Positions 1,052-33,463 are shown, counted from the stretch's first letter. The stretch: 42,159 nt of DNA from Candidatus Sysuiplasma jiujiangense (GCA_019721075.1 JAHEAD010000018.1:1-42159); one strand, 5' to 3'. A program made the numbers and translations. The notes: generated by a model not told the origin, from the letters alone.

Positions 1052-2719
1052 TTAAACAATTTCCGTGTTTTCAGAAAAACGCACAGGAGGGGAAACCGCC
1101 TGAGTCAGGCCCTGCCGCTCGTCATTAATGCGGTCCGTGAGAGTCCTTTCGTTTGCATTTCCGTATCCGCCGCCTCCGGCAGTGCGGATGAGAAAAATGT
1201 CTCCCTGTTCCATTTCAATGGAACACTTTGAGGGTACGCGCTTCCAGGTTCCAGGCGAAGAATTTTTCATTAAGTGGAATTCAGAACCTTTGCCGTCCTC
1301 TCCCCCTTCAAGGCCATACGGGAATGTATTCTCCCTTTCGGCGACAACTGTGAGCGTCATTTTTTCCAGGGCCCTGTAAGCACGATCGATGCCGCAGCCG
1401 CCACGCCATCTGCCGGCCCCCCCGCTTCCGGTCCGAAGTTCATATCTGACTATCTCAATGGGATAATCAAGCTCGACTATTTCCGCGGGCGTGTTCATCG
1501 TGTTGGTCATATTGCACTGTATGCCACTGACGCCGTCGCCCCCGTCATATGCCCCCGAGCCGACGCCGTTCGTCTCGTAGAACGACCAGGTCGAGCCGTG
1601 CGAAACTCCTCCAATCATCACGTTGTTCATTGAACCGCCGCATGCGGCGGGCACCTTTCCCGGAGCAAACCCTGCAAATGCGCGGAAAAGGACATCGACG
1701 TTTCTCATGCTTGTTTCAGTGTTACCTGCGGAAACAGGGAACGGAAATTCCGGATTCAGCAGGCTGCGTTCGGGAACCCTGACATCGACCGGTGAAAAGC
1801 AGCCATCGTTCGTCACTATGTCCGTTCCTGCAATTGCCCTGAGTACAAAATACACACCTGAAAGCGTGACGCCGAAAACAGCATTCAGCGGTGTCCTCAC
1901 CTGCTCCGCTGTTCCTTCGTAGTCGGCAGTCAGCCGCCTGCCCTTCTTCTTAAGTCTGACGCGCAGCACTACCTTCCTGCCGTCCGGCAGTTCCATGTAA
2001 TCCTCCGCGCCGGAAATGCCGTCCTTCATTTCCGATAGCCTGTGTTCAGTTATTTCCCTCGAGCGCTGTATTGCTGTTTCGTTTGCTTCTTCAAAACTCC
2101 GGATACCGTATTTTTCGAGCAGTGCCCGCAGCCTGGTTTCACCGAGCAGATTTGCTGCAATCTGTGCCCTGATGTCTCCACGTCTCTGATAAGGATCCCT
2201 TGAATTGGAAGACAGAAGCCTTATGAAAGACACATCTGTCCTTCCCTTCTTCATAAGCTTCACCGGATCAATTATAAAACCTTCCTGGAAGAGTTCCTCT
2301 GCATCGAACGGAATGCTTCCGGGAACCTTTCCACCCACGTCCGAATGATGAGCCTTGTTCGCCGCGAATGCTGCTAGCTTTCCTTTGTGGAAGACAGGCC
2401 TTATCACCGTTATGTCGTTAAGATGCGTTCCGGAGAGGTAGGGGTTGTTTACAGCAATCATGTCTCCCACGGAAATCTGCATGCCTTCCCTCCTCATGTG
2501 CTGCAGCGTCCTGCCGAGTCCCCACGGCAGGGATCCGAGATGAACCGGTATATGCTCCGCCTGCGCGATGAGCCGTCCCTCCCTGTCCAGCAGGGCGCAG
2601 GAGTGATCCATCCTGTCCTTTATGTTCGGAGAATAGGCTGAATTCCGCAGGACTATGCCCATCTCCTCGCTGGCATACATGAGCGATGATGAGATGATTT
2701 CTGAAGTGAATGACTCCAC
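1052..2719 (-). CDS. Hydantoinase B / 5-oxoprolinase subunit
   Basis: 555 aa with SPNIKDRMDHSCAL, HIPVHLGS, GTHLNDI, HHSDVGG, NTMNTPAE, GGAGRWRGG and TAGGGGYG motifs. GTG start with a GGTGA RBS. Confidence 0.92.
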   Translation of the reverse strand: MESFTSEIISSSLMYASEEMGIVLRNSAYSPNIKDRMDHSCALLDREGRLIAQAEHIPVHLGSLPWGLGRTLQHMRREGMQISVGDMIAVNNPYLSGTHLNDITVIRPVFHKGKLAAFAANKAHHSDVGGKVPGSIPFDAEELFQEGFIIDPVKLMKKGRTDVSFIRLLSSNSRDPYQRRGDIRAQIAANLLGETRLRALLEKYGIRSFEEANETAIQRSREITEHRLSEMKDGISGAEDYMELPDGRKVVLRVRLKKKGRRLTADYEGTAEQVRTPLNAVFGVTLSGVYFVLRAIAGTDIVTNDGCFSPVDVRVPERSLLNPEFPFPVSAGNTETSMRNVDVLFRAFAGFAPGKVPAACGGSMNNVMIGGVSHGSTWSFYETNGVGSGAYDGGDGVSGIQCNMTNTMNTPAEIVELDYPIEIVRYELRTGSGGAGRWRGGCGIDRAYRALEKMTLTVVAERENTFPYGLEGGEDGKGSEFHLMKNSSPGTWKRVPSKCSIEMEQGDIFLIRTAGGGGYGNANERTLTDRINDERQGLTQAVSPPVRFSENTEIV

Positions 2720-2723
2720 CGTC

Positions 2724-4808
2724 TCACCTCCTCCTCAGAACGATATTTTTCCACCGGTCCATCTCTGCCCTCCACCCCTTCGGAATGACTGTCGTTGTGT
2801 CGTACTGCCTTACGAGTGCAGGTCCGTCGAATCTGTTTCCGGGAACGATTTTCTCCCGTGAAACAACAGGTGTTTCTTCCGCCTCATCGCCAAACCATAC
2901 CTCAGTCCAGCCTGTCACCGCCTCCTTCGACAATCTCCTGCTGCCGGTTGCGCATCCTTCCATGACTGCCTTCTTCCTTACTCCGACGGCCGTAACACGT
3001 GCGGACACAAAGAGCACAGGGTCTTCTGCCGAAACGTAACCATAGAGTCTTCTGTGCCTTCTGCCGAACAGTCGCGCGATCTTTTCCGGCAGGTCTTCCC
3101 CCTTCCACCATCCCCCACGGGAGGGAAGCGTTATTGCAGTTTCTGCGCCCTGTCCCTCATAACGGAGCATCGCCTGTCTTATGAAGTGGAATCGGCCTGT
3201 GTCAGTGAAATCGCCGGAAATTTCCGCATGGGCCTTCTCCTCCAGCTTTTCGAAATATGCGGATATTTCGCGCGAATCCAGTTCATCAAGCTTTTTCATT
3301 GCGCCCGCAAAGTATTCTCTCCTGATGTCCGAAACAACAAGTCCGAGTGCGGAGAAGAGTCCGGGATGCTCCGGGACAATTATCGATTTGATGCCGATAT
3401 CCTCTGCAAGTTCCGCTGCATGAAGAGGACCTGCACCGCCGAAGCACAGCATTGAGAATCCTCTTGGATCGAGTCCGCGTTCAATGCTCACTATCCTCAG
3501 GATCTTTGACATGTTCAGATTTGCCACTGCCAGGATGCCCAGGGCTGTTTCGCAAATGCCTGTCCCGAGTCTTGAACACAACCTTTCGGACAGCGCGTCT
3601 TCCGCCGCCTTTCTGTCCAGCGGCATTGCCCCACCAAGAAGAGCATCTCCCGGCAGTCTGTTAAGCAGCAGATTGGCGTCTGTAACGGTTGGCTCCCTTC
3701 CCGCCCTGCCGTAGCATGCCGGACCGGGTATGGAACCGGCACTCTGCGGTCCCACGCGAAGGGAGCCGCCATCATCCAGCCAGGCTAAGGAGCCTCCTCC
3801 TGCGCCGGTCTCCGCAAGATCTATGAATGGAAATCTGACGGTATAACCGCTGCCCCTGATCGAGCGTCCGCTGTGAGTGGTGCCGGCCGCCTCGAACTCG
3901 TAGGAATGCTCGATCTCGCCATTGTGAATCACGCCGGCCTTTGCAGTCGTGCCTCCCATATCGAATGTGATAATGTCTCTGATCCCTGTCAGTCTTGAAA
4001 GATGCAGCGCAGAAACCACGCCGCTTGCTGGACCCGACTCTATCATCGAGACAGGTCTGTCTACCACATCCGCTGCGGTGTTGAGGCCGCCGTCGGACTG
4101 CATTATGTACAGGGGGACAGATCCGAACTCCTTCTTCAGGCGCTCTGTTATTCCGCTGATGTAACCGGAGACAGCCGGGCTGAGAACCGCATTCACCACA
4201 GCGGTGCTCGTCCTCTCGAACTCCCCCGGCTGCGGATCTATGTCGCTGGAGGAGACGGTTCTGAAGCCCATGCTGCGCAGGAAACCTGCGGCAAATTGCT
4301 CATTGCTCCCGTTTGCATAGGAGTTGATGAATGAAACGACTACGACCCCGGGAGAAATTTTCCGCAGGGAAGCTGACGCCGTCTCAAGCTCCGCTTCAGC
4401 TGGTTTCATCAGAACTCTTCCGCCTGCGTCAGTGCGTTCCCTGACCGTTATTCTCCGCTCTCTTGTCACAATCTGTTCCGGTCGCTTCAGTTTAAGATTG
4501 TATAATTCAGCTCTCCTCATCCGTCCTATCTCTATAACATCCCTGAAACCTTCTGTCGTCACGAGCGCAACCCGCGGCCAGTTTTTGTGTGTCAGCAATG
4601 TATTGGTTGCAATCGTGCCCGAATGCAGCACGAGGCCCGGTTTGCCGGGGGAAGATGCGGCTCTCACCCCTTCAATCAGAGCGTCTTCGGGCTTCTCCGT
4701 CGTAGCTATCTTGACTGTGAAAAGTCTTCGCCCGTGGTCGTCAGACGCGACGATGTCTGTGAATGTTCCCCCTATGTCGATGCCTACGACGACTGCTTCC
4801 GGTTTCAC
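2724..4808 (-). CDS. Hydantoinase A / 5-oxoprolinase ATP-binding subunit
   Basis: 694 aa with GIDIGGTFTD, GTIATN, EFERTSTAVVNA, ESGPASG, FDMGGTT, GAGGGS, GPACYG, PTVTDA and FGGAGPLHA motifs. Lies 4 nt from the B subunit gene. Confidence 0.93.
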   Translation of the reverse strand: MKPEAVVVGIDIGGTFTDIVASDDHGRRLFTVKIATTEKPEDALIEGVRAASSPGKPGLVLHSGTIATNTLLTHKNWPRVALVTTEGFRDVIEIGRMRRAELYNLKLKRPEQIVTRERRITVRERTDAGGRVLMKPAEAELETASASLRKISPGVVVVSFINSYANGSNEQFAAGFLRSMGFRTVSSSDIDPQPGEFERTSTAVVNAVLSPAVSGYISGITERLKKEFGSVPLYIMQSDGGLNTAADVVDRPVSMIESGPASGVVSALHLSRLTGIRDIITFDMGGTTAKAGVIHNGEIEHSYEFEAAGTTHSGRSIRGSGYTVRFPFIDLAETGAGGGSLAWLDDGGSLRVGPQSAGSIPGPACYGRAGREPTVTDANLLLNRLPGDALLGGAMPLDRKAAEDALSERLCSRLGTGICETALGILAVANLNMSKILRIVSIERGLDPRGFSMLCFGGAGPLHAAELAEDIGIKSIIVPEHPGLFSALGLVVSDIRREYFAGAMKKLDELDSREISAYFEKLEEKAHAEISGDFTDTGRFHFIRQAMLRYEGQGAETAITLPSRGGWWKGEDLPEKIARLFGRRHRRLYGYVSAEDPVLFVSARVTAVGVRKKAVMEGCATGSRRLSKEAVTGWTEVWFGDEAEETPVVSREKIVPGNRFDGPALVRQYDTTTVIPKGWRAEMDRWKNIVLRRR

Positions 4809-5013: not shown

Positions 5014-6516
5014 ATGCAGGAATCCCCGGACAGTGGAAAGGCCGACGAAGTCAACAGGCTCATGGAAGTCAGGAGAAACAAGCTGAAGAGGCAGATAGAG
5101 CTGGGACTGAATCCGTTCGCATATTCCTTCAGCAGGACACACACTTCAGCAGCAGTCAGGGAGAATTATGCCTCCGCAACACATGAACCCTCTGCCGATA
5201 CAGTAAGAGTGGCGGGCAGGGTTATGTCCGTCAGGGATCACGGGAAGTCATGTTTCATGAGCCTGAAGGACAGAAGCGGTACCATACAGTTGTATGGACG
5301 GGAGGATAAACTCGGCAGTGACCTCTACCCGCTTTTCAAGGAGATCGATGCCGGCGACATAGTTGGCATAGAGGGCCGGGTTTTCAGGACCAGACGGGGT
5401 GAAATCACAATTGATGTCACCTCCTTCACACCGCTGGCAAAGTCTCTCAGACCGCTTCCCGAGAAATTCCATGGCCTTCGGGACGTCGAGGCAAGGTACA
5501 GGATGCGTTATGTCGATCTTGCTGTAAACGATGAAGTGCTGAGCACGTTTATAATGAGGAGCAGAATTATCTCAGCAATACGGCGCTGGCTGGATGACCG
5601 GGATTTCATTGAGGTCGAGACACCGGTACTGACGCCTGTACCGGGCGGCGCCCTCGCCCGGCCGTTCGTGACTCATTACAATTTTCTCGAACAGGATTTC
5701 TATCTGAGGATCGCCACCGAACTTTACCTGAAGAGGCTGATCGTGGGTGGAATGGAGAAGGTTTACGAGATAGGCAAGGATTTCAGGAACGAGGACATCG
5801 ATACCACCCACAATCCGGAGTTCACCATGCTTGAGCTGTACCAGGCATACGCAGACTACAATGATATCATGTCACTGACAGAGAGCCTGGTAAGCGACGC
5901 ACTGCTGTCGGTGAAGGGCGATTACACTGTAAGCTACAGAGGGAACAGTCTGGACTTCAAGCCGCCATGGCGGAGAATAACAATGGTCGACGCAATAAGG
6001 GAAATCGGTGAAATAGATATCGATGCCGACGATGCTGAGTCGCTTCAGAAAACAGCGGCGAAACTGAAGCTTGAGGACATCCAAGACGGGATGAGCGCCG
6101 GTGAACTCATTGCAGAGATTTTCGACCAGAAGGTCCAGGAAATGATCGTGCAGCCGACAATCGTCTACGACCATCCCGTCGAAGTCAGCCCGCTTGCCAA
6201 GAAGAAGCGGGGTAACCCCAGGTTCGCCGAACGATTCGAGCCGTTCGTGTGCGGCATGGAATTTGGGAATGCATTTTCGGAGCTGAATGATCCCATTGAG
6301 CAGAAAGAAAATTTCGAGAGGCAGAGAGTCAGGCGGGAAGGCGGGGACGTGGAGGCGCATCCTTATGATGAGGATTATATCGTCGCGATGGAATACGGCC
6401 TGCCGCCGACTGGTGGTCTGGGTCTTGGCATAGACAGGCTCTGCATGGTGTTCTCCGGCACAGATTCGATAAAGGAAGTGATTCTCTTCCCTCAACTGAA
6501 GAGGAAAGAGGAGTGA
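5014..6516 (+). CDS. lysS: Lysyl-tRNA synthetase, class II
   Basis: OB-fold (VAGRVMSVRDHGK), LRPLPEKFHGL, RYRMRYVDL, YLRIATELYLKRL, motif 2 FRNEDID..HNPEFTMLE, motif 3 PPTGGLGLGIDRL. Start moved from the TTG at 4900 to the ATG at 5014. Confidence 0.97.
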   Translation: MQESPDSGKADEVNRLMEVRRNKLKRQIELGLNPFAYSFSRTHTSAAVRENYASATHEPSADTVRVAGRVMSVRDHGKSCFMSLKDRSGTIQLYGREDKLGSDLYPLFKEIDAGDIVGIEGRVFRTRRGEITIDVTSFTPLAKSLRPLPEKFHGLRDVEARYRMRYVDLAVNDEVLSTFIMRSRIISAIRRWLDDRDFIEVETPVLTPVPGGALARPFVTHYNFLEQDFYLRIATELYLKRLIVGGMEKVYEIGKDFRNEDIDTTHNPEFTMLELYQAYADYNDIMSLTESLVSDALLSVKGDYTVSYRGNSLDFKPPWRRITMVDAIREIGEIDIDADDAESLQKTAAKLKLEDIQDGMSAGELIAEIFDQKVQEMIVQPTIVYDHPVEVSPLAKKKRGNPRFAERFEPFVCGMEFGNAFSELNDPIEQKENFERQRVRREGGDVEAHPYDEDYIVAMEYGLPPTGGLGLGIDRLCMVFSGTDSIKEVILFPQLKRKEE

Positions 6517-6601
6517 CACTGCCGCCTGCGGGCATTCGGCAGTATGTGCTGTATCATCGAACCGCTGAGCTGACGAAACTGAAAATACCCGAGCTGCGGG
6601 G

Positions 6602-7516
6602 CTATTCCCGGAACCGCTGCACTGTTTCCTCTGGATGCTCCGGCGCGGAGACTTTTTTGGGCCCGTCCCTGGAACCTATGAATATCCCAAGCGATATCAG
6701 TGCGAAACCGAAATACGTGTAGATGCTGTTGGTCTCTCCGAGAAGTGCATAACTCAGTACGACCGAAACCGCAGGCACGAGGAAAAACATTCCTGAAATC
6801 CGGGTTACGTCGTATTTGCGCATCAGCTGGAAGTAGATGAGATAGGCAAAAGCGGAGCCGAACAGCCCCATATACACCGCTATCAGAATGAAAGTCAGAT
6901 TTATCCCCGATACGCTGAACTTTTCGGAAACTGCTGCCCACAGCAGGACAAACGGGACGGAGTATGCGAACTGAAGTGCGTTTACGCCGCCGACGCTTCT
7001 TCCCACAAGGTACTTCTTGTAGATGACCGCAGAGACTGACCATACGAATGCCGCAAGCACAAGATAGATAAGTCCTGGATTCAGGCTGAGGCTCAGCTGT
7101 TCTGCAAAAATTATGAACATACCGGCGAAACCTGTCACAACACCTGCGATTCTCGTCCCAGTCACTCTCTCCTTCAGGAAAAAATAGGAGAGGACAACAT
7201 TCATGATCGGGAAGGTGTAGATTATTATTGAAGAAATGGACGCGGGTTCCGTATTTTCTCCCAGAAACCAGAATCCCATGAAAAGCGCCGAATTGAGCAG
7301 CCCGGTAACCATGACGAGCAAGTTGTCCCCCAGTCCTCTGGGAATGTTCCTGAAACCGCCTATAATGACAAGAGAGAAGAGTGCGCCAAAGGCGACACGG
7401 AACAGCAGCACAAAAAGCGGCGCTTCATACTGCAGCGCAATTTTCAGCAGCGGATAGTTCAGGGCCCACATGGTAGCCATTGCCATGAAATAGACCGCAT
7501 CCCTGACCGAAGACAC
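6602..7516 (-). CDS. EamA/DMT-family transporter
   Basis: 304 aa, about 10 hydrophobic segments, two EamA repeats (W.LNYP..K, FLKERVT, LLGE). Confidence 0.88.
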   Translation of the reverse strand: MSSVRDAVYFMAMATMWALNYPLLKIALQYEAPLFVLLFRVAFGALFSLVIIGGFRNIPRGLGDNLLVMVTGLLNSALFMGFWFLGENTEPASISSIIIYTFPIMNVVLSYFFLKERVTGTRIAGVVTGFAGMFIIFAEQLSLSLNPGLIYLVLAAFVWSVSAVIYKKYLVGRSVGGVNALQFAYSVPFVLLWAAVSEKFSVSGINLTFILIAVYMGLFGSAFAYLIYFQLMRKYDVTRISGMFFLVPAVSVVLSYALLGETNSIYTYFGFALISLGIFIGSRDGPKKVSAPEHPEETVQRFRE

Positions 7517-7813
7517 AGGAAAGCTGATGCCTCAATTCCGTTTAATAATATTCGGTGGGAAGGCAGGTTTGGTCCACAACAGCGGACCGCTGCGGACTTT
7601 GGAAGCACCGTTCTGGTGACTGCTGAATGTCCTCTATGCCCGAGCGGGCAGTATGCCGCCTGTTCGCACGGCAATGCGCGGATCCGGTGTTTTCCTGAAC
7701 CGATTCCGGCCTTAAGCCCTCTGCCTGGCGTCGCCTGCCGCCGAAATCACCCACGCTGATTTTCACCCGTCAATTCAAAAGTTTGAATAACATCTTAATT
7801 GCTCCCCCGGCCG

Positions 7814-8893
7814 ATGATAAAATCTGTTGAGCACAGGATACTCGAAATTCCGATGAAGAAAGCTTTCAGGATTTCGCTCGGAAGTACGCAGTCGTACGAG
7901 GGTTTCCTCATTACTGTCAGAACCGACGACGGACTGACAGGTTACGGCGAAGCGGTGCCGACACCGTTCATTACAGGCGAAACACTGGGCTCAATCCGGG
8001 AGGCGCTGGGAATTCTGGGCCCTGTTCTCACCGGGCTTGATGAAACGGGAACGGAGCTGATAGCCGAAATCATGGAAAAAACGATTGCCGGATCCTATGC
8101 GGCCAAGTGCGGCATAGACATGGCACTTTGGGATCTCATGGGCAAAAGGGCCGGTCTGCCGCTGTCATCCCTGCTTGGAGGTTACAGGAAAAGCATACCG
8201 ACTTCTTTTACGGTGGACATCGGAACGATGGATGAAGTGGAGAAATACACGAAGGAATTTGTCGAGACGGGCATCAGGACAGTGAAGGTAAAGCTCGGCC
8301 GTGGACTGCGGGAGGATTATGAACGGGTAAAGAGGGCAAGACAGACTGCTGGAGACAGCGTGATGATATATGTTGATTTCAACCAGTCCTATTCGGCTAA
8401 GAAGGCCGTAGAGCTCAGCTCCATCATCCATAAATTCGAAATAGAATTCCTGGAACAGCCGACTCCTGCGAGCGATATTTCAGGGCTAAGATTTGTGAGG
8501 GAGAAAAGCGGCATTCCTGTCATGGCGGATGAGGCCGTTCATGGGCCGGAAGATGCAATGAGGATTGTAAAGGCAGAAGCAGCGGATATGATAAACATGA
8601 AGCTGATGAAGGCCGGCGGCATCAGCAGGGGCAGAAAAATTATAGAGATTGCGGAGGCGGCGGGAATGCCTGTAATGATTGGATGCATGGTGGAAACAAA
8701 GATAGCCGTGACGGCCGGAACGCATCTTGCGCTGGGCATGAAAAATGTGAAATATGCAGATCTTGACGGCTACTCAAGCCTGGTGCAAGACATAACCGCC
8801 GGCGGGCTTGTTCTGGAGAACGGGGAGAACAGCGTGTCCGGAAAACCGGGCCTGGGCCTTTCCATAGCACAGGAGGTTGGCACTCACGGATGA
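7814..8893 (+). CDS. Dipeptide epimerase (L-Ala-D/L-Glu epimerase, YkfB/YcjG-like; enolase superfamily)
   Basis: KVKLG (KxK), VDFNQ, EQP, ADE, NMKLMKAGG, GCMVET and the DLDG (DxD) motif diagnostic of dipeptide epimerases. ATG 7814 chosen as start. Confidence 0.88.
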   Translation: MIKSVEHRILEIPMKKAFRISLGSTQSYEGFLITVRTDDGLTGYGEAVPTPFITGETLGSIREALGILGPVLTGLDETGTELIAEIMEKTIAGSYAAKCGIDMALWDLMGKRAGLPLSSLLGGYRKSIPTSFTVDIGTMDEVEKYTKEFVETGIRTVKVKLGRGLREDYERVKRARQTAGDSVMIYVDFNQSYSAKKAVELSSIIHKFEIEFLEQPTPASDISGLRFVREKSGIPVMADEAVHGPEDAMRIVKAEAADMINMKLMKAGGISRGRKIIEIAEAAGMPVMIGCMVETKIAVTAGTHLALGMKNVKYADLDGYSSLVQDITAGGLVLENGENSVSGKPGLGLSIAQEVGTHG

Positions 8894-9636
8894 ATTGCGC
8901 GGCACAAAGGTGTCCGGAAAATGAAAAAGACGGAGAAGTGAGGAATCTGAAACTGAGGACAATTATCGGCGTATCGGATCTGAGGGCGGAACCGAAATTC
9001 AGATCTGAAAGGGTAAGCCAGACCATTTTCGGCGAGGCGGTCGATGTGCTGAAAGGCGGAAGCGGCGACTACATGCATGTCAGGGCTGCCGACGGATACG
9101 AGGCATACACGTCCAGAAACGGTTTCGGGAAGGTGTCGGCAGAACCGGAATACAAGATTGTGCAGGCCTGGAAGACAGGCGATATCAGGCTGCCGGTAGG
9201 CTCCCTTCTGACAGAGGATGACGTGGAAAAAATGCTTATCCCCCGGAAATTTTACAGGCCGCTTGATTATTCTGTTGATGTGCTGGGGCTGGCACGCGGA
9301 TATCTCGGCGTTCCCTACCTGTGGGGCGGAGTGTCGGAATTCGGTATAGACTGCTCCGGACTGGTTCAGCGCGTGTTCGGATTCAACGGTGTGAAACTTC
9401 CCAGGAATGCGGGTGAGCAGGAACATGCCGGTAAAATCGTATCATCTCTTGATGAGGCGGAGCCTGAGGATACTGTCTTCTTTCCGGGACATGTCGGAAT
9501 ATACATGGGAAAGGGGCGCCTGATTCATGCCAATCTGCACAATCAGAGGGTGAGCATAACCGATCTGTCTGACCGTAGCGCATATTCATCCTATCTGAGG
9601 AAACATGTGACATCAATAAGGAGGATAAGGAACTGA
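8890..9636 (+). CDS. SH3b-NlpC/P60 (C40) peptidase, YkfC-like gamma-D-glutamyl dipeptidyl-peptidase
   Basis: GVPYLWGG, GIDCSGLVQ, LPRNA, GHVGIY and IHAN give a Cys-His-His triad. N-terminal LRAEP...SERVSQTIFGE...DGY is SH3b-like. ATGA overlap with the epimerase (alternative GTG at 8938). No signal peptide. Confidence 0.88.
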   Translation: MNCAAQRCPENEKDGEVRNLKLRTIIGVSDLRAEPKFRSERVSQTIFGEAVDVLKGGSGDYMHVRAADGYEAYTSRNGFGKVSAEPEYKIVQAWKTGDIRLPVGSLLTEDDVEKMLIPRKFYRPLDYSVDVLGLARGYLGVPYLWGGVSEFGIDCSGLVQRVFGFNGVKLPRNAGEQEHAGKIVSSLDEAEPEDTVFFPGHVGIYMGKGRLIHANLHNQRVSITDLSDRSAYSSYLRKHVTSIRRIRN

Positions 9637-9777
9637 AGTTCAGACACGGGTTTATGGAATGGTCTTTCGAATTGGGCTGCAGTCTTTCTTGTTAGTCACG
9701 GGCAATCAGAACTGGCACCTCGATGGGCAGAATCGGCCTTCAATATTATTTCATACATGTAGGGTATAACCTCTTTC

Positions 9778-11340
9778 GTGTTCGAAATTGTCAACGGCTT
9801 AATTGCCGACGGAAGCGGCAGGCCCCTTTTTGAAAATCCCGGTATAATCGTCAGGAAGGACAGAATGTTCTTTGACACCAGGGCCGGGAAGAATCCCCGG
9901 GCAAAGGTGATCGACGCCGGCAGTCTGGTCATTGCCCCCGGGTTCATCGACGCCCATTCACACTCCGATGTAGCTGTCCTGCGCAATCCACGTGCAGAAA
10001 ACAGGATACTCCAGGGTATAACTACCGAGGTAACGGGTAATTGCGGCTTTTCCCCTTTTCCTGTGACGGATCTCAACAGGGATGCGATGAAACGGGAATA
10101 TGTGCGATCCGGCGTCAGGCTGAGATGGAACAACCTGAGCGGATATGCGGAAGCGGTCAACAGGGTCAGGCCGGCAATCAACATTGCACCCCTGCAGGGA
10201 CACGGGAATCTCAGGGCCGCTGCCATGGGTTATGCCGGAAGGGCGCCGGACGGCAAAGAGCTAAGGCTGATGAAGAAACTCCTTTCCGAAAGTATGGCAG
10301 CCGGCTCTTTCGGCCTTTCATCCGGGCTGGAATACACGCCATCATCATTTGCGAACTGGAAGGAACTTGCCTCGCTCTGTTCAGTCGTTTCAAAATTCGG
10401 CGGGGTCTATGCGACCCACATGAGAAACGAGGATGATTTCCTTGAGAAATCTGTCGCCGAATCGCTGAAGGTATCCAGAGAAGGGGGCGTCAGGCTGGAA
10501 ATATCCCACCTGAAGTCAACGAGGAGGGCCAACTGGGGCAAGGTGGTGACGGTCCTCGCTGAGCTTGAAAGAAAATCGGCCAGGAACAGGGCAATAGCAT
10601 GGGATGCATACCCGTATGCGGCCTGCCACACAGATCTGACAATCACCCTTCCCTCGTACATAATGGACGGCGGTTTCTCCTCGATGCTCACGGCAGTTGC
10701 GGATGCGAAGACAAGAGCGAAGGTTATGGCCGACATGGAAAAGGACAGGGATATGGAAGACTGGAATGCGATTGTCGTGGAAGACATCACTTCAGGCGAA
10801 ATTTCGCATTTCAATAACAGAAATATCGGTGACATTGCCAGGCAGATGAACACGGTAGCCCCGGAGGCTGTATTGAAACTGCTTGAGATCAACGGTCATG
10901 ATATCGCAATTATCGTGCACAACATGGCACAGGAGGACGTCGACAGGGTGTTCAGCCATCCGCTGACCGGAATAGGCAGCGACAGTTCCGTTTATACAGG
11001 CGGCCATCCCCACCCGCGGGCATTCGGCACTTTTCCAAGGGCGTTTGCACGTTACGTCAGGGAACTCAAAAGCTGTCCGATGGAGCTCATGGTAATAAAA
11101 GCATCGGGACTCAATGCTGAAAGATTTTCAATACAGATGAGAGGATTCCTGCGTGACGGATATTTTGCCGACATAGTCATATTCAGCCCGGTGGTCATTG
11201 CAGACAGGAGCACTTATGAGCAGCCTTCCATAGAGCCGGAGGGCATAAGACACCTGTTTGTAAACGGCGTTCCTGAAATAGAAGATGGGAAGGTTACAGG
11301 CAGGCGGGGCGGGAGAGTGCTTAAGCTGAATGCCGCATGA
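9778..11340 (+). CDS. N-acyl-D-amino-acid deacylase (D-aminoacylase family amidohydrolase)
   Basis: APGFIDAHSHSD, QGITTEVTGNCGFS, GLSSGLEY, YATHMRNE, ISHLK, GSD and HPRAFGTFPR motifs. Confidence 0.88.
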   Translation: MFEIVNGLIADGSGRPLFENPGIIVRKDRMFFDTRAGKNPRAKVIDAGSLVIAPGFIDAHSHSDVAVLRNPRAENRILQGITTEVTGNCGFSPFPVTDLNRDAMKREYVRSGVRLRWNNLSGYAEAVNRVRPAINIAPLQGHGNLRAAAMGYAGRAPDGKELRLMKKLLSESMAAGSFGLSSGLEYTPSSFANWKELASLCSVVSKFGGVYATHMRNEDDFLEKSVAESLKVSREGGVRLEISHLKSTRRANWGKVVTVLAELERKSARNRAIAWDAYPYAACHTDLTITLPSYIMDGGFSSMLTAVADAKTRAKVMADMEKDRDMEDWNAIVVEDITSGEISHFNNRNIGDIARQMNTVAPEAVLKLLEINGHDIAIIVHNMAQEDVDRVFSHPLTGIGSDSSVYTGGHPHPRAFGTFPRAFARYVRELKSCPMELMVIKASGLNAERFSIQMRGFLRDGYFADIVIFSPVVIADRSTYEQPSIEPEGIRHLFVNGVPEIEDGKVTGRRGGRVLKLNAA

Positions 11341-11500
11341 TGCGTCTGCCCCCTTGTGCCGGAAGCGCCGATGCGGACTGTGCGAACATACGCCATAGCG
11401 CCGGTCAGTGGGCTGTTCCGCCGCAATGGCCTGCAGAAGGCGCCAGCAGGCACTCGTCTCCCTGATACCAGGTCAGATCCGCAATAGTCCTGCAGCTATT

Positions 11501-11508
11501 TTTATATC
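11501..11508 (+). promoter_or_regulatory. Putative TATA box for pirin
   Basis: TTTATATC about 45 nt upstream of the ATG, with a GGTGA RBS between them. Confidence 0.45.
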
Positions 11509-11551
11509 TGAACACTACTGATTAAACATGCCTCAAAGGTGAATTGGAAAT

Positions 11552-12478
11552 ATGGAAACAAGACGTGTCGCCGAAGTTCTGAAGAGCAGACCGACGATGG
11601 AAGGAGCAGGGGTCAGGCTGATGAGGGGTTTCGGGAATCAGCAGCTTGCATATGTTTTCGACCCTTTTCTTCTCTTTGACGATTTCGGTTCGCATTATCC
11701 CCATGAATACATGGCAGGTTTTCCTTGGCATCCGCACAGGGGAATAGAGACGGTAACATACCTTCTGAAAGGAGAGGTGCACCACGAAGACAGCACAGGG
11801 ACAAAGGGTGTAATACGCAGCGGCGATCTCCAGTGGATGAGCGCAGGCAGCGGAATCTACCATGCCGAAATGCCGAGACCGCCACCGAAGGAAAATGGCA
11901 GCCAGAAGGAGGACAGCGAGATGAGGGGCTTCCAGCTTTGGGTCAATATCCCTGCGGACAGGAAAATGAGCGAGCCGAACTACAAGAATCTGCTCAGGCA
12001 GAATGTGGCGGATGTCGAGCTCAATGACGGTACGAGGGTAAAGCTTGTCGCAGGCGAGCTCAAAAAGGTTCCCGGTGTCGGAGACATTTCCGGTCCTGTC
12101 AGGGACCTGCCTGTTGACGCACATTATCTCGATGTTACCATGAAGAATGAAAGCGAATTGAGCTACAACGTGAAGGACGGTTACACGACATTCGCTTATG
12201 TGGTTGAAGGCGAGGCAATATTCGATACAAGGAACAACATACGCGCCGGGCCGAGATCCGTTGTTCTTTTCGAGCGCTATGGCGACAATGTGAACATCAG
12301 GACGGATGAGACAGGGGCACGCTTCCTCCTCATCTCGGGGAGGCCTCTGAAAGAACCCATCGCATGGCATGGCCCTATTGTTATGAATACAAGGGAACAG
12401 CTGATGGAGGCCTTCCAGGAACTTCAGACCGGCGAATTCATAAAGCACAAGGCTACATCATACGATTACATCGAATAG
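11552..12478 (+). CDS. Pirin-family protein
   Basis: DPFLLFDDF, FPWHPHRGIETVTY, WMSAGSGIYHAEMP, GFQLWVN and GPIVMNT motifs. Confidence 0.93.
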   Translation: METRRVAEVLKSRPTMEGAGVRLMRGFGNQQLAYVFDPFLLFDDFGSHYPHEYMAGFPWHPHRGIETVTYLLKGEVHHEDSTGTKGVIRSGDLQWMSAGSGIYHAEMPRPPPKENGSQKEDSEMRGFQLWVNIPADRKMSEPNYKNLLRQNVADVELNDGTRVKLVAGELKKVPGVGDISGPVRDLPVDAHYLDVTMKNESELSYNVKDGYTTFAYVVEGEAIFDTRNNIRAGPRSVVLFERYGDNVNIRTDETGARFLLISGRPLKEPIAWHGPIVMNTREQLMEAFQELQTGEFIKHKATSYDYIE

Positions 12479-12493
12479 CTCCCGGCCAGTGTA

Positions 12494-13540
12494 TCAGGGT
12501 GACGGCTGCTGCTGGGTGGCGCAGTGTATCGTTCCGAAGCCATGAACCATGGCACTGCAGTCAATGCCCACGATACGCCTCCCCCTGAAAACATCTTTCA
12601 GGGCATCCAGTATGATGTCATCATTTCTGCATCCGAATACAGGCACCAGCACCGCTGAGTTCCCTATGTAGAAATTGGCGTAACTTGCCGGCAATCCTGC
12701 GGTGTCCGGTGTCCTGACCGGCATGGGCACCTCCACGATATCCACTTCATCCCTGCCCAGGGAAAAAGCTCTCTTCAAAATCTTCAGATTGGCATCCAGT
12801 ACTCCCCGGTTGGAATCATCCCTGTTGCTTTCCACCATGCATATGACGGTGTCCATGGAAACGAAACGGGCTACGTCGTCAATGTGACCGTCCGTGTCAT
12901 CGCCCTCTATACCGCCGCTCAGCCAGATTACCTCTTTCGCGCCGAGATACTCCCCAAGCTTCATCTCGATATCCCTCCTTCCAAGTGCCGGGTTCCTGTT
13001 TTTGTTGAGGAGGCACTGCTCTGTGGTGAGGAGCCTTCCGCTGCCGTCTACATCGATTGAACCCCCTTCAAGCACCATACCTGTCTCGACAATTTCCAGT
13101 TCGGCCGATTTGGCTATTTCCATTCCTGCAATGTTGTCCGGAAGCAGATCATCGTATTTGTTCCCCCATGCATTGAATGTCCATTTTGTCGCAACAATCT
13201 TTCGTGCATTCCTTTTTCTGACGAAAATCGGCCCGTAGTCGCGGACCCAGACGTCCGCTGCCTGTATGGTGTGGAATTTTACGTTCCTGGTGCTGTTGAG
13301 CATGGAAGTTATGTGCTCCTCAAGAGATGCGTCTGCGGCGAGTATGTCGATCCTTTCGCCCCGGGACAGTTCCTCCACTATACCGACGAATGTCTGCTCC
13401 ACCTCTTCCATTATGTCGTCCGGAAAGGTCAGTCTGTTCCCGGGCCAGGAAATCCATGTGGACTCATGTTTTTCCCACTCCGCCGGCATCCTGTACTCCG
13501 GTATCCCGTCCTTCGTAATATCATGCGGTAAGCGGATCAC
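12494..13540 (-). CDS. aguA: Agmatine deiminase
   Basis: RMPAEWE, WVRDYGP, FNAWGNKY, LEGGSIDVDG, DDTDGHIDD, ASYANF and GTIHCATQQQP (catalytic Cys) motifs. Confidence 0.92.
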   Translation of the reverse strand: MIRLPHDITKDGIPEYRMPAEWEKHESTWISWPGNRLTFPDDIMEEVEQTFVGIVEELSRGERIDILAADASLEEHITSMLNSTRNVKFHTIQAADVWVRDYGPIFVRKRNARKIVATKWTFNAWGNKYDDLLPDNIAGMEIAKSAELEIVETGMVLEGGSIDVDGSGRLLTTEQCLLNKNRNPALGRRDIEMKLGEYLGAKEVIWLSGGIEGDDTDGHIDDVARFVSMDTVICMVESNRDDSNRGVLDANLKILKRAFSLGRDEVDIVEVPMPVRTPDTAGLPASYANFYIGNSAVLVPVFGCRNDDIILDALKDVFRGRRIVGIDCSAMVHGFGTIHCATQQQPSP

Positions 13541-14373
13541 CTGACCAGTCTGCCATATGTTGAGGGCATCCTGTTCCTCAGGAACCCCCAGCCTTTTTCA
13601 ATGTTTCTTCCGAGACCAGGATCGCATTCGGCAATCAGTGCCTCTTCCCCGCGTCCTCCCCTGGCAATGAAATTTCCAAACTGATCACAGACGAATGAGC
13701 CGCCCCAGAAATTCATGTCACCTTCCCTGCCTGTTCTGTTTGCGCATGCTACAATCAGACTGTTGGCTATGGCATGCCCCCTCTGTACGGCGGTCCACGC
13801 GTCCTTCCAGCTGCCTTCCGTCTGTTCTATGCCTCTCACCGTTCCTATCGCTGTCGGATAAAAAAGTATGTCCGCACCCATGAGCCTGTTGATTCGTGCA
13901 GCCTCGGAATACCACTGGTCAAAGCAGATGAGCACGCCGATCCTGCATTTCTCAGTTTTTACAACGGTGTATCTGTTTCCCGGCGAGAAGTAGTTTTTTT
14001 CATAAAAATAGGGATCCTGGGGAACATGGACTTTCCTGTATTTCCCTATCAGTCTTCCCTTCGCGTCAAAGATGAGGGAGGTGTTGTACCTCCTTCCCCC
14101 GGCCGACTCAAAGAGCGAGCCGCCTACAAGCACGACCCTGTTCTCCCTGGCTGCTGCCGAAAGCATGTCGCTCGAAGGGCCGGGAATCCTTTCTGGTTTC
14201 ACCGTACTGTTTCTGGAAGCAGGAAAGTATCTGGTGCCAAAAAGTTCGGGAAGGCAGACTATTTCCGCTCCGGATTTCGCCGCCCTGCCGACCATTTCCG
14301 ATGCCCTGTGCAGGTTCTTTTCGGCATCCCCGTGCGTCTTCATCTGAACAAGACCGACCTTGAGTTTCTCCAT
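13537..14373 (-). CDS. aguB: N-carbamoylputrescine amidase (nitrilase family)
   Basis: E-K-C triad (LPELF, YRKVHVP, ICFDQW), FYEKNYFSPG, YPTAIG and QRGHAIAN. Overlaps aguA by 4 nt. Confidence 0.88.
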   Translation of the reverse strand: MEKLKVGLVQMKTHGDAEKNLHRASEMVGRAAKSGAEIVCLPELFGTRYFPASRNSTVKPERIPGPSSDMLSAAARENRVVLVGGSLFESAGGRRYNTSLIFDAKGRLIGKYRKVHVPQDPYFYEKNYFSPGNRYTVVKTEKCRIGVLICFDQWYSEAARINRLMGADILFYPTAIGTVRGIEQTEGSWKDAWTAVQRGHAIANSLIVACANRTGREGDMNFWGGSFVCDQFGNFIARGGRGEEALIAECDPGLGRNIEKGWGFLRNRMPSTYGRLVR

Positions 14374-14525: not shown

Positions 14526-16376
14526 TCAGATCCACACGTATAGCAGAACGGCAATGAGTGCAGCCAGTATGTAAAGCATGTATCTTCCAATGGAGCTGTT
14601 CATGATACTTCTGCCGGAATGGTATGATATACTTCTGTATGCTCTTCCGGCCGCTTCGAGGGCATTCCACTCCCTGTTGAGAGGCGTCGTCGCGCCTGTT
14701 TCTCTTCCAAAGAGGTATCTGAACATCAGTCTCACCGGATTTGAATACTGAAACGGGCCGTAAGATCCAGGCTCAGCCATCAGGCCGCCTGCCCATACCG
14801 GTACTGTTCTTCCCTTCCTTCCTGCACCGATCAGCACGTATGCTGTTGTCGAGAAGATGAAGATCAGGCCTGCTATAAAGAACGGTGAAATAAGTCCGAA
14901 TACACCGGACGGACCAGGCGAGGTTATCAGCAGTCCATCCGGCACTGCGAGGAGACCGCCTATCAGTGACGAAATGCCGTGTCCCGTCACCATTTCTATT
15001 GCGCTATCTGCGAAATAAAGAAAGTAAGAGGACAGGATTCCCAGAAAGAGAACAACGATCCCGGCAACGGCGACTCCCGACGAAAGCAGTTTTCCGCTGC
15101 TATTACTGCCTCCTGCCGTTCCATAGCCGAAAAGTTTGCTCATCGAAACAAGCGACATGCCCCCTCCCAGTGCAACTGCGGCACCTACAAAAACTGAGAT
15201 GACAGAAACGCCTGTTCCGCCGAAGGTTACGAGAATGAACAGTGTTTCGAGCAGCATCCATTCTCCCAGTCCTCCGCCGAACGGAAGCAGACCTGCAAGG
15301 GATAATGCGCAGATGAAACCGCCTGCCGCTGCGCCCGTTCCTGGTCCCTCTGATACATTTCCGAGCAGGCCGCTCCGGGACTTCTTTTCTATGATGCCGG
15401 AAAACATGAAGAGGCCTGCCTTTCCCAGTGTATGTGCAAAGACGAACACGATCGATGTTCCAGCAGCAAAAGCGGCCAGAAGATAGTCATGATAATAGAG
15501 TGCGACCACTACGGATCCGAGTGCTATCAGCATGGAACCTCCATTTTCAACTGTGCTGTAGGCCGGTATGATCTTGACATGCTCCGCGGTTGCCGCAAAC
15601 ACGGATGCGAATACGGCGGTGAATGCTCCTGCAACCATCATGAGTATGCCGGCACCGATGGATGGTGGAGTCAGGGATATCAGACGTAATATGCAGTAGA
15701 CTGCCAGCATAGTCATTGTTGCGCTGAAGAGAACAGAACCGTTGGTGGGCGCACTGCTGTGGGCAACAGGCAGCCAGTCTGATATCAGGAAGGGCGTGAC
15801 ACCCATCTTCACCGCGAAACCGAATATTCCGAGCAGAAATGCGACTGTGGAAGTGAAGTATGTCATTTCAAACGTTCCTGTTTCAAAATACAACACTGCA
15901 GTCATCAGAAGTATGAGCAGGGTGCTCAGTTCGCTGAATATGATGAAGAGCAGCGGCGCCCTTCCATTCACATTTTTTACTGAGATTATCTGCAGATATC
16001 CTGCGATGCTCATCATTTCCCAACCGAAGAGCAGGGTGAAGAAGGAGTGCGACAGCAGTACCACCACCATCGAGAGTATTGAAACTGAATAGCCGATGGC
16101 GTTTGTTCTGGAGTTCCTGTCGTAGCCTGCAGAATAGATGGAAGAAGCTGTCCAGGCAATTGCACCGATCATCAGGAATAGTGACGAAAGTGCGTCGAGC
16201 CTGAACGATATCAGCCCGTCAATGTAGAATGTGTCGGGTGGTGCATTTATGGACAGTATGGATATGATAAATGTGATCACTGAAACAGAACCCGTCAGGG
16301 CATAGGAAAGTCTTACCCGTGCCGTCGCAACCAGTGGCGGCAGGAAGAAAAGGGCCATGACGATAAACGGATTCAC
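14526..16376 (-). CDS. Hydrogenase-4 component B-like (HyfB/NuoL-MrpA antiporter-like) subunit of an Ehr complex
   Basis: 616 aa, highly hydrophobic; WEMMS, VKMG..P...WLPVAHSSAP, AYSTVEN and HTLGKAGLF motifs. Confidence 0.85.
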   Translation of the reverse strand: MNPFIVMALFFLPPLVATARVRLSYALTGSVSVITFIISILSINAPPDTFYIDGLISFRLDALSSLFLMIGAIAWTASSIYSAGYDRNSRTNAIGYSVSILSMVVVLLSHSFFTLLFGWEMMSIAGYLQIISVKNVNGRAPLLFIIFSELSTLLILLMTAVLYFETGTFEMTYFTSTVAFLLGIFGFAVKMGVTPFLISDWLPVAHSSAPTNGSVLFSATMTMLAVYCILRLISLTPPSIGAGILMMVAGAFTAVFASVFAATAEHVKIIPAYSTVENGGSMLIALGSVVVALYYHDYLLAAFAAGTSIVFVFAHTLGKAGLFMFSGIIEKKSRSGLLGNVSEGPGTGAAAGGFICALSLAGLLPFGGGLGEWMLLETLFILVTFGGTGVSVISVFVGAAVALGGGMSLVSMSKLFGYGTAGGSNSSGKLLSSGVAVAGIVVLFLGILSSYFLYFADSAIEMVTGHGISSLIGGLLAVPDGLLITSPGPSGVFGLISPFFIAGLIFIFSTTAYVLIGAGRKGRTVPVWAGGLMAEPGSYGPFQYSNPVRLMFRYLFGRETGATTPLNREWNALEAAGRAYRSISYHSGRSIMNSSIGRYMLYILAALIAVLLYVWI

Positions 16377-17002
16377 CTTCCTCCCCTCGCCTTGATAAGC
16401 GCGTCAAGAATTGTAAAAGGACTCGGCGGGCATCCCGGGACAAGCACATCGACTCTGACCGCGCCGGTAACTGGTCTGCCTATGATTCCGCCCGAAATTG
16501 CACAGGTACCTGCCGCTATCACCAGTTTGGGTTCAGGCATGGCATCGTATGCCGCAATGAGCACGTCATGCATTCTTTCGGCCAGCACTCCGACAACAAT
16601 CAGCGCATCCGCGTGTCTGGGTGTGCTGGTGAAGAAAATTCCGAGTCTGTTGAAGTCATAAACCGGGTTTGAAAGCGCATGCACTTCCGTATTGCATGCG
16701 CCGCAGGAACCGGTATCTATGAGATAGATGTGAAACGACTGTCTGAATGTCCTGTTGCTCTCACTCAGCAGGGCAATTCTGACATCTCCTGCCGGTTCAA
16801 ACTGTGGAGCGCATCTTCCGCAGGAAATGCACCTCTCCATGTTGACACTGTCCGCTTCAACGGCATCTGCCGGGCATTCAACGCGCCCCTCCATTTTTCT
16901 GACCGGCTTTGTGCTCCATGCCGATACGCTCTCCGCATCTCCGTCAGGAAAACGCGTGGTCACAATACCCTTCCTGAGGCCGCTTAAAATCCAGGATTTC
17001 AC
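16373..17002 (-). CDS. HycG/HyfI/NuoB-like small subunit with an N-terminal ferredoxin-like segment
   Basis: GSCGAC, TPRHAD, GTCAISGG and PGCPP retain four Cys. The N-terminus has CP...CISCGRC. Confidence 0.88.
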   Translation of the reverse strand: MKSWILSGLRKGIVTTRFPDGDAESVSAWSTKPVRKMEGRVECPADAVEADSVNMERCISCGRCAPQFEPAGDVRIALLSESNRTFRQSFHIYLIDTGSCGACNTEVHALSNPVYDFNRLGIFFTSTPRHADALIVVGVLAERMHDVLIAAYDAMPEPKLVIAAGTCAISGGIIGRPVTGAVRVDVLVPGCPPSPFTILDALIKARGGR

Positions 17003-33365: not shown

Positions 33366-33463
33366 CGGGAAGAGCATGGTTTCGGTCACTTTATATTTAT
33401 CACGGCATCAGGCGGATATGCTGGAAATCGAATACCTGCCACCCGTTTCAGTGGTGATTGACT

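Follow-up and report, generated by a model that had tools for sequence, protein, structure and literature searches.

Why would an archaeon that makes no murein carry the genes with which bacteria take murein peptides apart? The question is raised by three genes on a contig of Candidatus Sysuiplasma jiujiangense (GCA_019721075.1, JAHEAD010000018.1), which was analyzed over its full length of 42,159 nucleotides (nt) and is referred to here as the window. The window is the entire contig C10 of a 2.29-Mb, 55-contig genome (G000) rated 97.2% complete. In its listing of open reading frames (ORFs), the three genes are co-oriented on the plus strand (Table 1) and encode a dipeptide epimerase (Pfam MR_MLE_N and MR_MLE_C), a peptidase with an SH3b and an NlpC/P60 domain (SH3_16/SH3_3 and NLPC_P60) and a D-aminoacylase (Amidohydro_3). 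The ATG of the peptidase gene overlaps the TGA of the epimerase gene by 4 nt (ATGA).

The original prediction, made from the sequence of the window, joined the three genes in one cytoplasmic module for scavenging murein peptides. Its description of the genes themselves, as coding for a DxD-type epimerase, a coupled SH3b-NlpC/P60 peptidase and a D-aminoacylase, has held up: ORFs, Pfam and solved-structure matches agree. The peptidase had also been said to lack a signal peptide, which hydropathy bears out, as an N-terminal hydrophobic segment is missing from all three proteins (maximum 19-residue hydropathy of 0.9-1.4, compared with 2.96 in the window's solute-binding protein). Judged by sequence, all three genes are intact and cytoplasmic. 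Only part of the joint role can be kept. The epimerase-peptidase pair (7814-9636) is probably a horizontally acquired module for the cytoplasmic catabolism of murein stem peptides in an archaeon without murein, the substrates being suggested by gene context, above all by the clusters of relatives. The D-aminoacylase does not share the genomic company of the pair and is placed outside the module.

Murein Catabolism Clusters in Related Archaea

How is the pair placed in other archaea? Among the genomes sampled, the peptidase was found in 12 of 201 from the class (G000 included) and in 10 of 401 from the phylum. Within the class it occurs in six of the nine other genomes of the window's own family (f1) and in five of 20 genomes of a second family (f18); 28 other families had none. 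Approximately 16 kb was fetched around each copy (loci with L-numbers), and 139 ORFs from 14 loci were scanned against Pfam and a subset against NCBIfam. Epimerase orthologues with 65-76% identity adjoin the peptidase in the same-family genomes. In the clusters of this family, the pair lies among MurQ, AnmK, NamZ, MupG, a GH3 NagZ, NagA and NagB, together with a BadF/G-type sugar kinase, a PBP4-type S13 carboxypeptidase and a PBP4B/AmpH-like protein. MurQ is the N-acetylmuramic acid (MurNAc)-6-phosphate etherase, AnmK the anhydro-MurNAc kinase, NamZ an exo-muramidase and MupG a 6-phospho-muramidase. NCBIfam scores exceed the cut-offs for MurQ (347; cut-off 168), NagA (306; 226), NagB (250; 237) and LysA (348-410; 298), and AnmK reaches 230-251 bits in Pfam.

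In f18 and on the public archaeal contigs L003-L006, the neighbors include NamZ, NagZ, MurQ-like and NagA-like proteins, S13, LdcA, SBP_bac_5 and an M55 D-aminopeptidase. A LysA-type diaminopimelate decarboxylase is encoded within approximately 1 kb of the peptidase in L101, L102, L104, L003, L004, L005 and L006, which suggests salvage of released diaminopimelate (DAP). The murein reading of the pair is stronger than it was at first, because in relatives the pair sits in complete clusters for the catabolism of MurNAc, N-acetylglucosamine (GlcNAc) and stem peptides. Near-complete clusters of approximately 12-14 kb were seen in L095 (G032), L096 (G071), L097 (G007), L101 (G025), L102 (G091), L103 (G112) and L104 (G140). 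L003 (archaeon YP1.bin45) and L004 (a Nitrososphaerota archaeon) have nearly the same gene order with the peptidase; there, genes for a DAP_DH_C-domain protein and an ABC transporter come next. As L004 is labeled as a different phylum, it could reflect transfer between archaeal phyla or an issue of labeling or binning.

Phylogeny agrees with this picture. In a quick maximum-likelihood tree of 87 peptidases, a single branch (SH-aLRT 96) separates the 14 archaeal copies from the rest. The tree is unrooted, the other 73 rows are bacterial and drawn from many phyla, and their backbone lacks resolution, so no donor is named. A single archaeal clade among bacterial peptidases fits horizontal acquisition. 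Records for Cuniculiplasma divulgatum and for Picrophilus oshimae/torridus include C40 peptidases identical to those of two relatives; cultured archaea therefore carry such peptidases.

A protein of approximately 300 amino acids (aa) with a C-terminal GNAT domain is encoded between the peptidase and the epimerase at L095:9016-9933 (-) and L096:8713-9624 (-), and two GNAT genes (L098:29-685 and 948-1580, +) precede the pair in G080. The GNAT protein of the relatives has no NCBIfam name and no orthologue in G000; it may acetylate a D-amino acid or an amino sugar.

The Peptide Branch in the Genome of the Window

How much of these clusters is kept in the window's own genome? Twenty-one cluster proteins of relatives were searched against G000 by tblastn. 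Four matched at E <= 1e-6, namely LdcA, LysA, DUF218 and a class-A-type beta-lactamase-fold protein, and a limit of E <= 0.01 added only a chance-level GNAT fragment. The LdcA-like S66 peptidase is encoded on contig C45. Contig C2 encodes a 186-aa Amidase_2 protein of the AmpD/AmiD type (129 bits), without a signal peptide, next to the proteasome alpha gene; Amidase_2 was also found in both same-genus genomes searched (G032 and G071). In control genomes, the same domain was matched in 6 bacteria and in 0 of 4 archaea. An IS66-family transposase gene (L127:4973-6370, -, on C2) adjoins proteasome alpha, approximately 1.8 kb from the AmpD-like gene.

The murein enzymes of G000 belong to the peptide branch only (AmpD-like, LdcA-like, YkfC-like, YkfB-like and LysA); the set of the relatives is complete. 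From its gene content, G000 appears to have lost the sugar branch and to keep a complete peptide branch. On contig C12 of G000, the stretch at 146.6-161.9 kb is colinear with the right-hand flank of the cluster in G032. Directly upstream, where the cluster would be expected, the 219-kb C12 has genes for ribosomal protein S3Ae and lipoyl synthase and an operon for a 2-oxoacid dehydrogenase. Because C12 runs uninterrupted through this place, the absence of the cluster there is no assembly gap.

Insertion of the Pair and the Standing of the D-aminoacylase

Is the D-aminoacylase a third member that extends the pathway, as the original prediction held? All three genes would then form one unit, with the D-aminoacylase acting, for instance, on L-Ala-D-Glu or on wall-derived N-acyl-D-amino acids. 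The genes are indeed adjacent and co-oriented, with 142 nt before the D-aminoacylase, and enzymes of its family act on D-configured amides; Bordetella Bb3285 is also said to hydrolyze L-Met-D-Glu, reportedly from the work of Cummings et al. in 2009. The arrangement is stable across several metagenomes. The order eamA-epimerase-peptidase-D-aminoacylase-pirin is also spanned by contigs of three other metagenome studies (Table 1), so it is no assembly chimera.

The distribution of the genes nevertheless argues against a single unit. Among the best 80 public loci encoding a peptidase relative, 12 also encode the epimerase and not one encodes the D-aminoacylase. Of 15 archaeal loci, 8 have the epimerase no more than a few kb from the peptidase, and again none has the D-aminoacylase there. 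Orthologues of the D-aminoacylase, 64-70% identical, are present in all three other same-genus genomes, each on a contig other than that of the pair. The family also occurs in families of the class that have no peptidase (in f4, 22 of 22 genomes compared with 0 of 22), and the known pathway requires no such step.

The same-genus genome G071 points to how the genes became neighbors. Its locus reads lysRS-eamA-D-aminoacylase-pirin-aguA-aguB-mbhH-nuoB-nuoD, which is the order of the window minus the pair, with eamA and the D-aminoacylase approximately 90 nt apart and nothing of the pair between them. The DNA of C10 matches the clusters of G032 and G071 only in the two ORFs of the pair. A pair segment of approximately 2.1 kb was therefore inserted in the spacer between eamA and the D-aminoacylase, next to a D-aminoacylase locus that was ancestrally without it. 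A blastn-short comparison of the two spacers with relatives gave only chance-level matches of 12-17 nt, and the borders of the insertion are for this reason approximate. In the spacer ahead of the D-aminoacylase, the ATTTCATA box is invariant in four of four genus members, this window included, while the remaining spacer has diverged. The distance of the ATTTCATA box from the start codon would suit an archaeal TATA element and a leaderless or short-leader transcript. Taken together, the unlinked orthologues, the G071 locus and the retained box make a single three-gene unit improbable. On sequence grounds the D-aminoacylase gene is independent, has a promoter-like element of its own and is not a member of the module, and its adjacency to the pair is a chance neighborhood.

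The protein itself is a recognizable member of its family. Its best solved relatives are the Alcaligenes D-aminoacylase 1m7j (264 bits) and the N-acyl-D-Glu deacylase 3gip (242 bits), and the motifs DAHSH, GNCG, ATHMR, ISHLK, GSD, YPY and HPR align with 1m7j. Excerpts of two papers list an HxH, Cys/His/His ligands, a catalytic Asp, a YPY hinge with a ligand Tyr and an Arg for the alpha-carboxylate as features of D-aminoacylases (PMC12149444, PMC12017989). Compared with the enzymes in these excerpts, the metal ligands, catalytic Asp, YPY hinge, Arg and typical Thr all align in the window's protein. It differs from AfDam, BbDam and OngB in having His284 for their Ser, and in a Ser (residue ~430) that replaces Leu two residues after the catalytic Asp. 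Both positions are called strictly conserved in the excerpted part of a 2025 paper (PMC12017989); as the two differ here, the pocket for the acyl group or carboxylate may be unusual, which could be counted in favor of a special role beside the pair. The insertion domain is approximately 40 residues longer than in known D-aminoacylases, and the position that sets specificity (Leu298 in AfDam, Arg in Bb3285-like enzymes) lies in this domain, outside the HMMER alignment. In this genome only, the gene stands beside murein genes.

Some RNA contigs bear on the locus. In the metatranscriptome X20, short contigs match parts of the epimerase (8027-8280), of the D-aminoacylase (9992-10247 and 11215-11473) and of pirin with full or nearly full identity; none lies on the peptidase and none bridges two genes. 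These are assembled contigs of an RNA library that may hold DNA, and they cannot show absence, transcript ends or co-transcription. They give a weak hint of transcription, and no inference on operon structure is drawn from them, because transcript ends and co-transcription are beyond their reach.

Residues and Specificity of the Pair

Do the two enzymes carry the residues expected for murein peptides? In the peptidase, the catalytic triad Cys155/His201/His213 is invariant in 40 of 40 aligned homologues. In excerpts of the BcYkfC structure paper, the S1 residues that bind gamma-D-Glu are Tyr226, Trp228, Asp237 and Ser239 (PMC2954226). Mapped through the motif GVPYLWGG...DCSG, their counterparts are Y143, W145 and D154, found in 40 of 40 homologues, and S156, found in 39 of 40. 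The sequence matches solved NlpC/P60 enzymes that include the dipeptidyl-peptidase VI/YkfC entries 3pvq, 3npf and 3h41. An N-terminal SH3b domain and a YkfC/AvPCP-like overall fold are present by Pfam and in the predicted model, which has a predicted local distance difference test score (pLDDT) of 93.4. For this model, Foldseek ranks 1-8 are held by five YkfC-type recycling enzymes specific for stem peptides (BtYkfC 4r0k/3pvq, BoYkfC 3npf, AvPCP 2hbw, BcYkfC 3h41 and NpPCP 2evr; TMq 0.67-0.78).

The YkfC subfamily is defined in the excerpted papers by a Tyr in the SH3b domain and an Asp after a conserved Arg (PMC2954226, PMC4600125). The Tyr of strand beta-D (Tyr118 in BcYkfC, Tyr80 in BoYkfC) binds the free L-Ala amine and blocks MurNAc (PMC4600125, in part), and the defining Asp is Asp256 in BcYkfC and Asp221 in BoYkfC (PMC2954226, PMC4600125). 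In the window's peptidase, Y70 aligns with 3pvq chain residue 60 (Tyr80) in a low-scoring stretch of the alignment; Tyr occupies this position in 27 of 40 homologues, and Val or Leu in five archaeal relatives of the Picrophilus/Cuniculiplasma subclade. At the Asp position, 76 bacterial loci have Asp (49), Asn (2) or another residue (2), with 23 unmatched by the motif pattern. Because Asn173 replaces the Asp here, the peptidase is filed as a YkfC-like variant and not as a strict member of the subfamily. DvLysin, with Ala and Asn at the two positions, is described in the excerpts as also cutting sugar-linked peptides, and its A211Y variant (Tyr and Asn) as retaining activity on the free tetrapeptide and losing most of it on larger substrates (PMC4600125). 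Y70 and N173 together match the state of DvLysin A211Y, and by this analogy the peptidase may be read as a YkfC-like enzyme for free stem peptides.

The epimerase has as its best solved relatives E. faecalis 3jva (253 bits), B. subtilis YkfB 1jpm/1tkk (239) and 3rit (225). The motifs KxK (K158/K160), VDFNQ, LEQP, MADE and NMKLMK are found in nine of nine archaeal copies, and the three metal ligands (D, E, D) and the second catalytic Lys are present. The DxD motif, which binds the dipeptide's alpha-ammonium moiety (Asp321/Asp323 in YkfB), is also kept in nine of nine copies, with D316-L-D318 aligned to YkfB D321-F-D323. Epimerase homologues with 42-45% identity were also seen in G013, G066, G075 (f13), G111 and G118 (f28), where no peptidase was found with this query.

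Several observations weigh against a role of the pair in murein catabolism. The top solved relative of the epimerase, 3jva, is presumably an enzyme that prefers Xaa-Tyr dipeptides. The epimerase scores 238 bits against the NCBIfam Ala-Glu epimerase model, below the cut-off of 500. In the peptidase, the position of the defining Asp is held by Asn173 (PRNA), and by Asn in 13 of 13 archaeal relatives. The tblastn search of G000 found no AnmK, MurQ, NamZ, NagZ, NagA, NagB, MupG, sugar kinase, S13 or PF00144, nor an orthologue of the cluster's binding protein, which leaves the supply of substrate unexplained. The Arg24 position of the epimerase is Gly23, and the nine archaeal copies have Gly (eight) or Glu (one) and neither Arg nor Lys. 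In B. subtilis YkfB, Arg24 of the 20s loop binds the side-chain carboxylate of Glu, according to part of a preprint (bioRxiv 10.1101/2022.05.01.490185).

What could stand in for Arg24? A basic residue, K/R296 (VETK), is found in nine of nine archaeal copies and in YkfB, but in neither 3jva nor any of the 10 bacterial ykfC-linked copies; it may bind the Glu carboxylate and so offset the loss. Ala-Glu epimerases without Arg24 were reportedly described by Lukk et al. in 2012. The 20s loops of 10 bacterial ykfC-linked epimerases have R, K, H, G, T, L or S, and with such variation no rule of specificity can be derived from sequence. As Arg24 is absent, the Ala-Glu specificity predicted for the window's epimerase is drawn from its gene context. 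A DgcA-type N-acetyl-D-Glu racemase was considered because L095 and L096 have a GNAT gene between the pair, and was set aside: the NCBIfam DgcA model scores 166 bits compared with 238 for the Ala-Glu model, both below their cut-offs, and G000 has no orthologue of the relatives' GNAT protein.

Could the substrates of the pair be other peptides with D-amino acids, for instance hydrophobic dipeptides, pieces of poly-gamma-glutamate or peptides made non-ribosomally? With Arg24 missing, the sequence by itself is compatible with an epimerase that is not specific for Ala-Glu, which the original prediction had named as a case against it. The missing Arg24, the higher score with the E. faecalis enzyme than with YkfB (253 and 239 bits), the Asn in place of the subfamily Asp and the lack of MurNAc/GlcNAc catabolism genes in G000 would all suit such substrates. 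They are set against the (near-)invariance of Y143, W145, D154 and S156, which correspond to residues that bind gamma-D-Glu, against the archaeal and YkfB-like K/R296, and against the orthologues of relatives, which lie among MurQ, AnmK, NamZ, LdcA and LysA. With these, a different peptide substrate seems quite unlikely, and murein stem peptides are preferred.

The NlpC/P60 protein could also be imagined to attack living bacteria, as do the secreted archaeal hydrolases reported in 2025. Archaeal SH3_3+NLPC_P60 proteins are catalogued among homologues of peptidoglycan hydrolases in the excerpted part of that survey, where 67 of 210 homologues (32%) have a signal peptide and 68% are without a known one (PMC12352652). 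The window's peptidase, however, has neither signal peptide nor membrane segment, its start codon overlaps the gene for a cytoplasmic epimerase, its Tyr70 sits where recycling enzymes block MurNAc-linked substrates (PMC4600125, in part) and its relatives stand in catabolic gene contexts. A function in killing is very unlikely.

The Host

Is the host an archaeon without murein? The archaeal origin of the contig, which the original prediction took as apparent, is borne out by several lines of evidence. A full-length archaeal 16S rRNA gene (1497 bits) is present on contig C2, and tricorn protease, RtcB, an aIF5B-type factor, ribosomal protein S3Ae and proteasome alpha are encoded on contigs other than the window. 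The tetranucleotide composition of C10 correlates with the rest of the genome at r = 0.973 (range 0.932-0.995 for 20 contigs of at least 30 kb), and C10 is syntenic over nine genes with a 227-kb contig of the same-genus genome G071. The homologues of all three genes are mostly bacterial, but contamination of the bin by a bacterial contig can be practically dismissed in view of the mid-range composition, the nine-gene synteny, the orthologues in the single-contig class genome G091 (99% complete) and the identity of relatives' peptidases to those on record for Picrophilus and Cuniculiplasma.

The host belongs to the class Thermoplasmata and is a wall-less, acid-loving archaeon from a mine-drainage habitat. 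The stretch at 7500-11400 is nearly complete (0.89-1.00 of sampled words) in 19 DNA runs, which come from 7 studies of mine drainage, mine tailings and sediment; the source of this DNA may be among them, in five of the runs. The host makes no murein, which was likewise predicted: a profile search of the 97.2% complete genome gave no match to PF00905 (penicillin-binding protein transpeptidase) or PF01098 (SEDS), both of which were matched in 10 of 10 bacterial and 0 of 4 archaeal control genomes. The sole ORF with a Mur ligase middle domain is FolC (TIGR01499, 363 bits; cut-off 163).

A Possible Route for Murein Peptides

The presence and integrity of the genes, their folds, catalytic residues, location, phyletic pattern and contexts allow substrates and an order of steps to be proposed. 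Free or MurNAc-linked stem peptides from bacterial walls would be imported, and the AmpD-like amidase (C2) would remove the sugar. The LdcA-like LD-carboxypeptidase (C45) would then trim the tetrapeptide to a tripeptide, in which the SH3b-NlpC/P60 amidase would cut the bond between gamma-D-Glu and the diamino acid to give L-Ala-D-Glu and meso-DAP or Lys. The epimerase would convert L-Ala-D-Glu to L-Ala-L-Glu, which ordinary dipeptidases would split, and DAP could pass to lysine through LysA. In this scheme the ancestral state of the family would be a full murein catabolism cluster, from which the sugar branch was lost in the window's lineage, with the pair moving into the spacer between eamA and the D-aminoacylase.

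A broader statement is put forward with more reserve. On balance, the evidence leans toward the acquisition, by acidophilic wall-less Thermoplasmata that include Picrophilus and Cuniculiplasma, of a complete cytoplasmic pathway of bacterial origin for eating murein, from the import of muropeptides by way of MurNAc/GlcNAc catabolism and the breakdown of stem peptides to the conversion of DAP to lysine, with the window's lineage specialized on peptides and the specificity of the peptidase clade perhaps widened. The widening is suggested by the archaeal clade, in which Asn stands for Asp in 14 of 14 copies and the Tyr is lost in one subclade.

Features and Neighbors of the Locus

The coordinates of the locus are collected in Table 1. 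Rfam and tRNA scans of the window gave no matches.

Table 1. Features of the locus and contigs of further studies that bridge it (positions in the window).
Feature	Position	Strand	Remarks
Dipeptide epimerase, enolase superfamily, YkfB/YcjG-like	7814..8893	+	359 aa from ATG; alternative TTG start 7799
YkfC-like SH3b + NlpC/P60 cysteine amidase, Tyr70/Asn173 variant, predicted gamma-D-Glu-diamino acid endopeptidase	8890..9636	+	248 aa
D-aminoacylase	9778..11340	+	520 aa, GTG start, 142 nt downstream of peptidase
EamA-family transporter, ancestral divergent neighbor of D-aminoacylase	6602..7516	-	Pfam EamA; adjoins D-aminoacylase in G071
Inserted segment (own upstream region + epimerase + peptidase), approximate	7560..9700	.	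Borders judged by eye
ATTTCATA box, candidate archaeal TATA element	9748..9755	+	23-30 nt upstream of D-aminoacylase start codon
X8 contig	7523-10913		One piece
X10 contigs	6500-7507, 7478-7894, 7865-12482		Pieces
X12 contig	6500-12500		One piece; near-identical, may be this DNA's source

Other genes of the window deal with nitrogen compounds and peptides. Agmatine deiminase and N-carbamoylputrescine amidase (12494-14373, -) make up a putrescine route from agmatine. A hydantoinase/oxoprolinase A/B pair (1052-4808, -), an S9 peptidase (31410-33389) and a peptide-binding protein with a permease (35046-37998) are also encoded. These genes fit a lifestyle of consuming peptides and amino acids. Six co-oriented genes (14526-21115, -) form a small membrane-bound hydrogenase/Mrp-type complex with two Proton_antipo_M subunits, NuoB-, NuoD- and NuoH-like proteins and one further protein; it lies beside the agmatine genes in G071 too. 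At the ends of the contig are genes of mobile-element type, an HTH_32/HTH_23 transposase-like N-terminus (1-582, -) and a resolvase-domain ORF (41481-42158, +), which probably account for the assembly break there.

Known Systems and Implications

The machinery is of the type used for the recycling of bacterial cell walls; what was not expected is the archaeal host. Bacillus ykfB-ykfC and Bacteroides BT1313-BT1314 have the same two enzyme families encoded by adjacent genes, and their YkfC has the same SH3b + NlpC/P60 fold as the window's peptidase (Foldseek, predicted model). As in the window, B. subtilis YkfC is without a signal peptide, according to excerpts of PMC2954226. The window's peptidase differs in its single SH3b domain, as in the cyanobacterial AvPCP/NpPCP, and in its Asn for the defining Asp, the epimerase in lacking the Arg24 of YkfB, and the locus in that LdcA (YkfA-type in ykfABC) is present in the genome but unlinked. 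In an archaeal host without murein, the role would be purely catabolic, unlike in Bacillus and Bacteroides.

Cytoplasmic recycling in E. coli employs AmpD, LdcA, MpaA and YcjG together with AnmK, MurQ, NagZ and NagA. The route proposed here follows this logic and order of steps, and likewise takes place wholly in the cytoplasm. G000 has AmpD-, LdcA- and YcjG-like genes and appears to have lost the sugar branch, and the relatives have homologues of AnmK, MurQ, NagZ, NagA, NagB and LdcA. The step at gamma-D-Glu-DAP would be carried out here by a cysteine amidase instead of the zinc enzyme MpaA, and no Mpl/Mur ligases are present for reuse of the peptide.

Peptidoglycan holds much organic carbon and nitrogen, and D-amino acids in the environment come in large part from it. 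To our knowledge, its consumers have been assumed to be bacteria and eukaryotes. A paper on anaerobic ciliates of detrital food webs and their lateral acquisition of prokaryotic genes reportedly mentions MurQ and AnmK. A full-text literature search, with most subscription journals outside its range, returned no paper on cytoplasmic murein catabolism in archaea. In excerpts of the 2025 survey, two secreted archaeal enzymes kill bacteria, and peptidoglycan scavenging as a major use is left open; of the 33 SH3 + NLPC_P60 occurrences in its supplement 1, the 30 viewed mostly name haloarchaeal genera (PMC12352652). These enzymes, Woldo and Danwoldo, are likewise archaeal proteins of bacterial origin that act on murein (PMC12352652, in part). 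They are secreted and kill, whereas the window's peptidase is cytoplasmic by prediction and coupled to an epimerase, with relatives' copies among catabolic enzymes.

The clusters of the relatives would supply the missing cytoplasmic half of an archaeal route for scavenging peptidoglycan, and these complete clusters in the Thermoplasmata are a bigger lead than the remnant in this window. For annotation, the pair is best described as a murein-peptide module and the D-aminoacylase as a gene outside it. The identical peptidases on record for cultured Picrophilus and Cuniculiplasma make the question testable at the bench. If the specificity of the archaeal peptidase clade is widened, it may take sugar-linked peptides too. 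These archaea probably feed on dead bacteria and, should the wider reading be true, these Thermoplasmata of acid mine drainage would be dedicated to consuming the necromass of bacterial cell walls.

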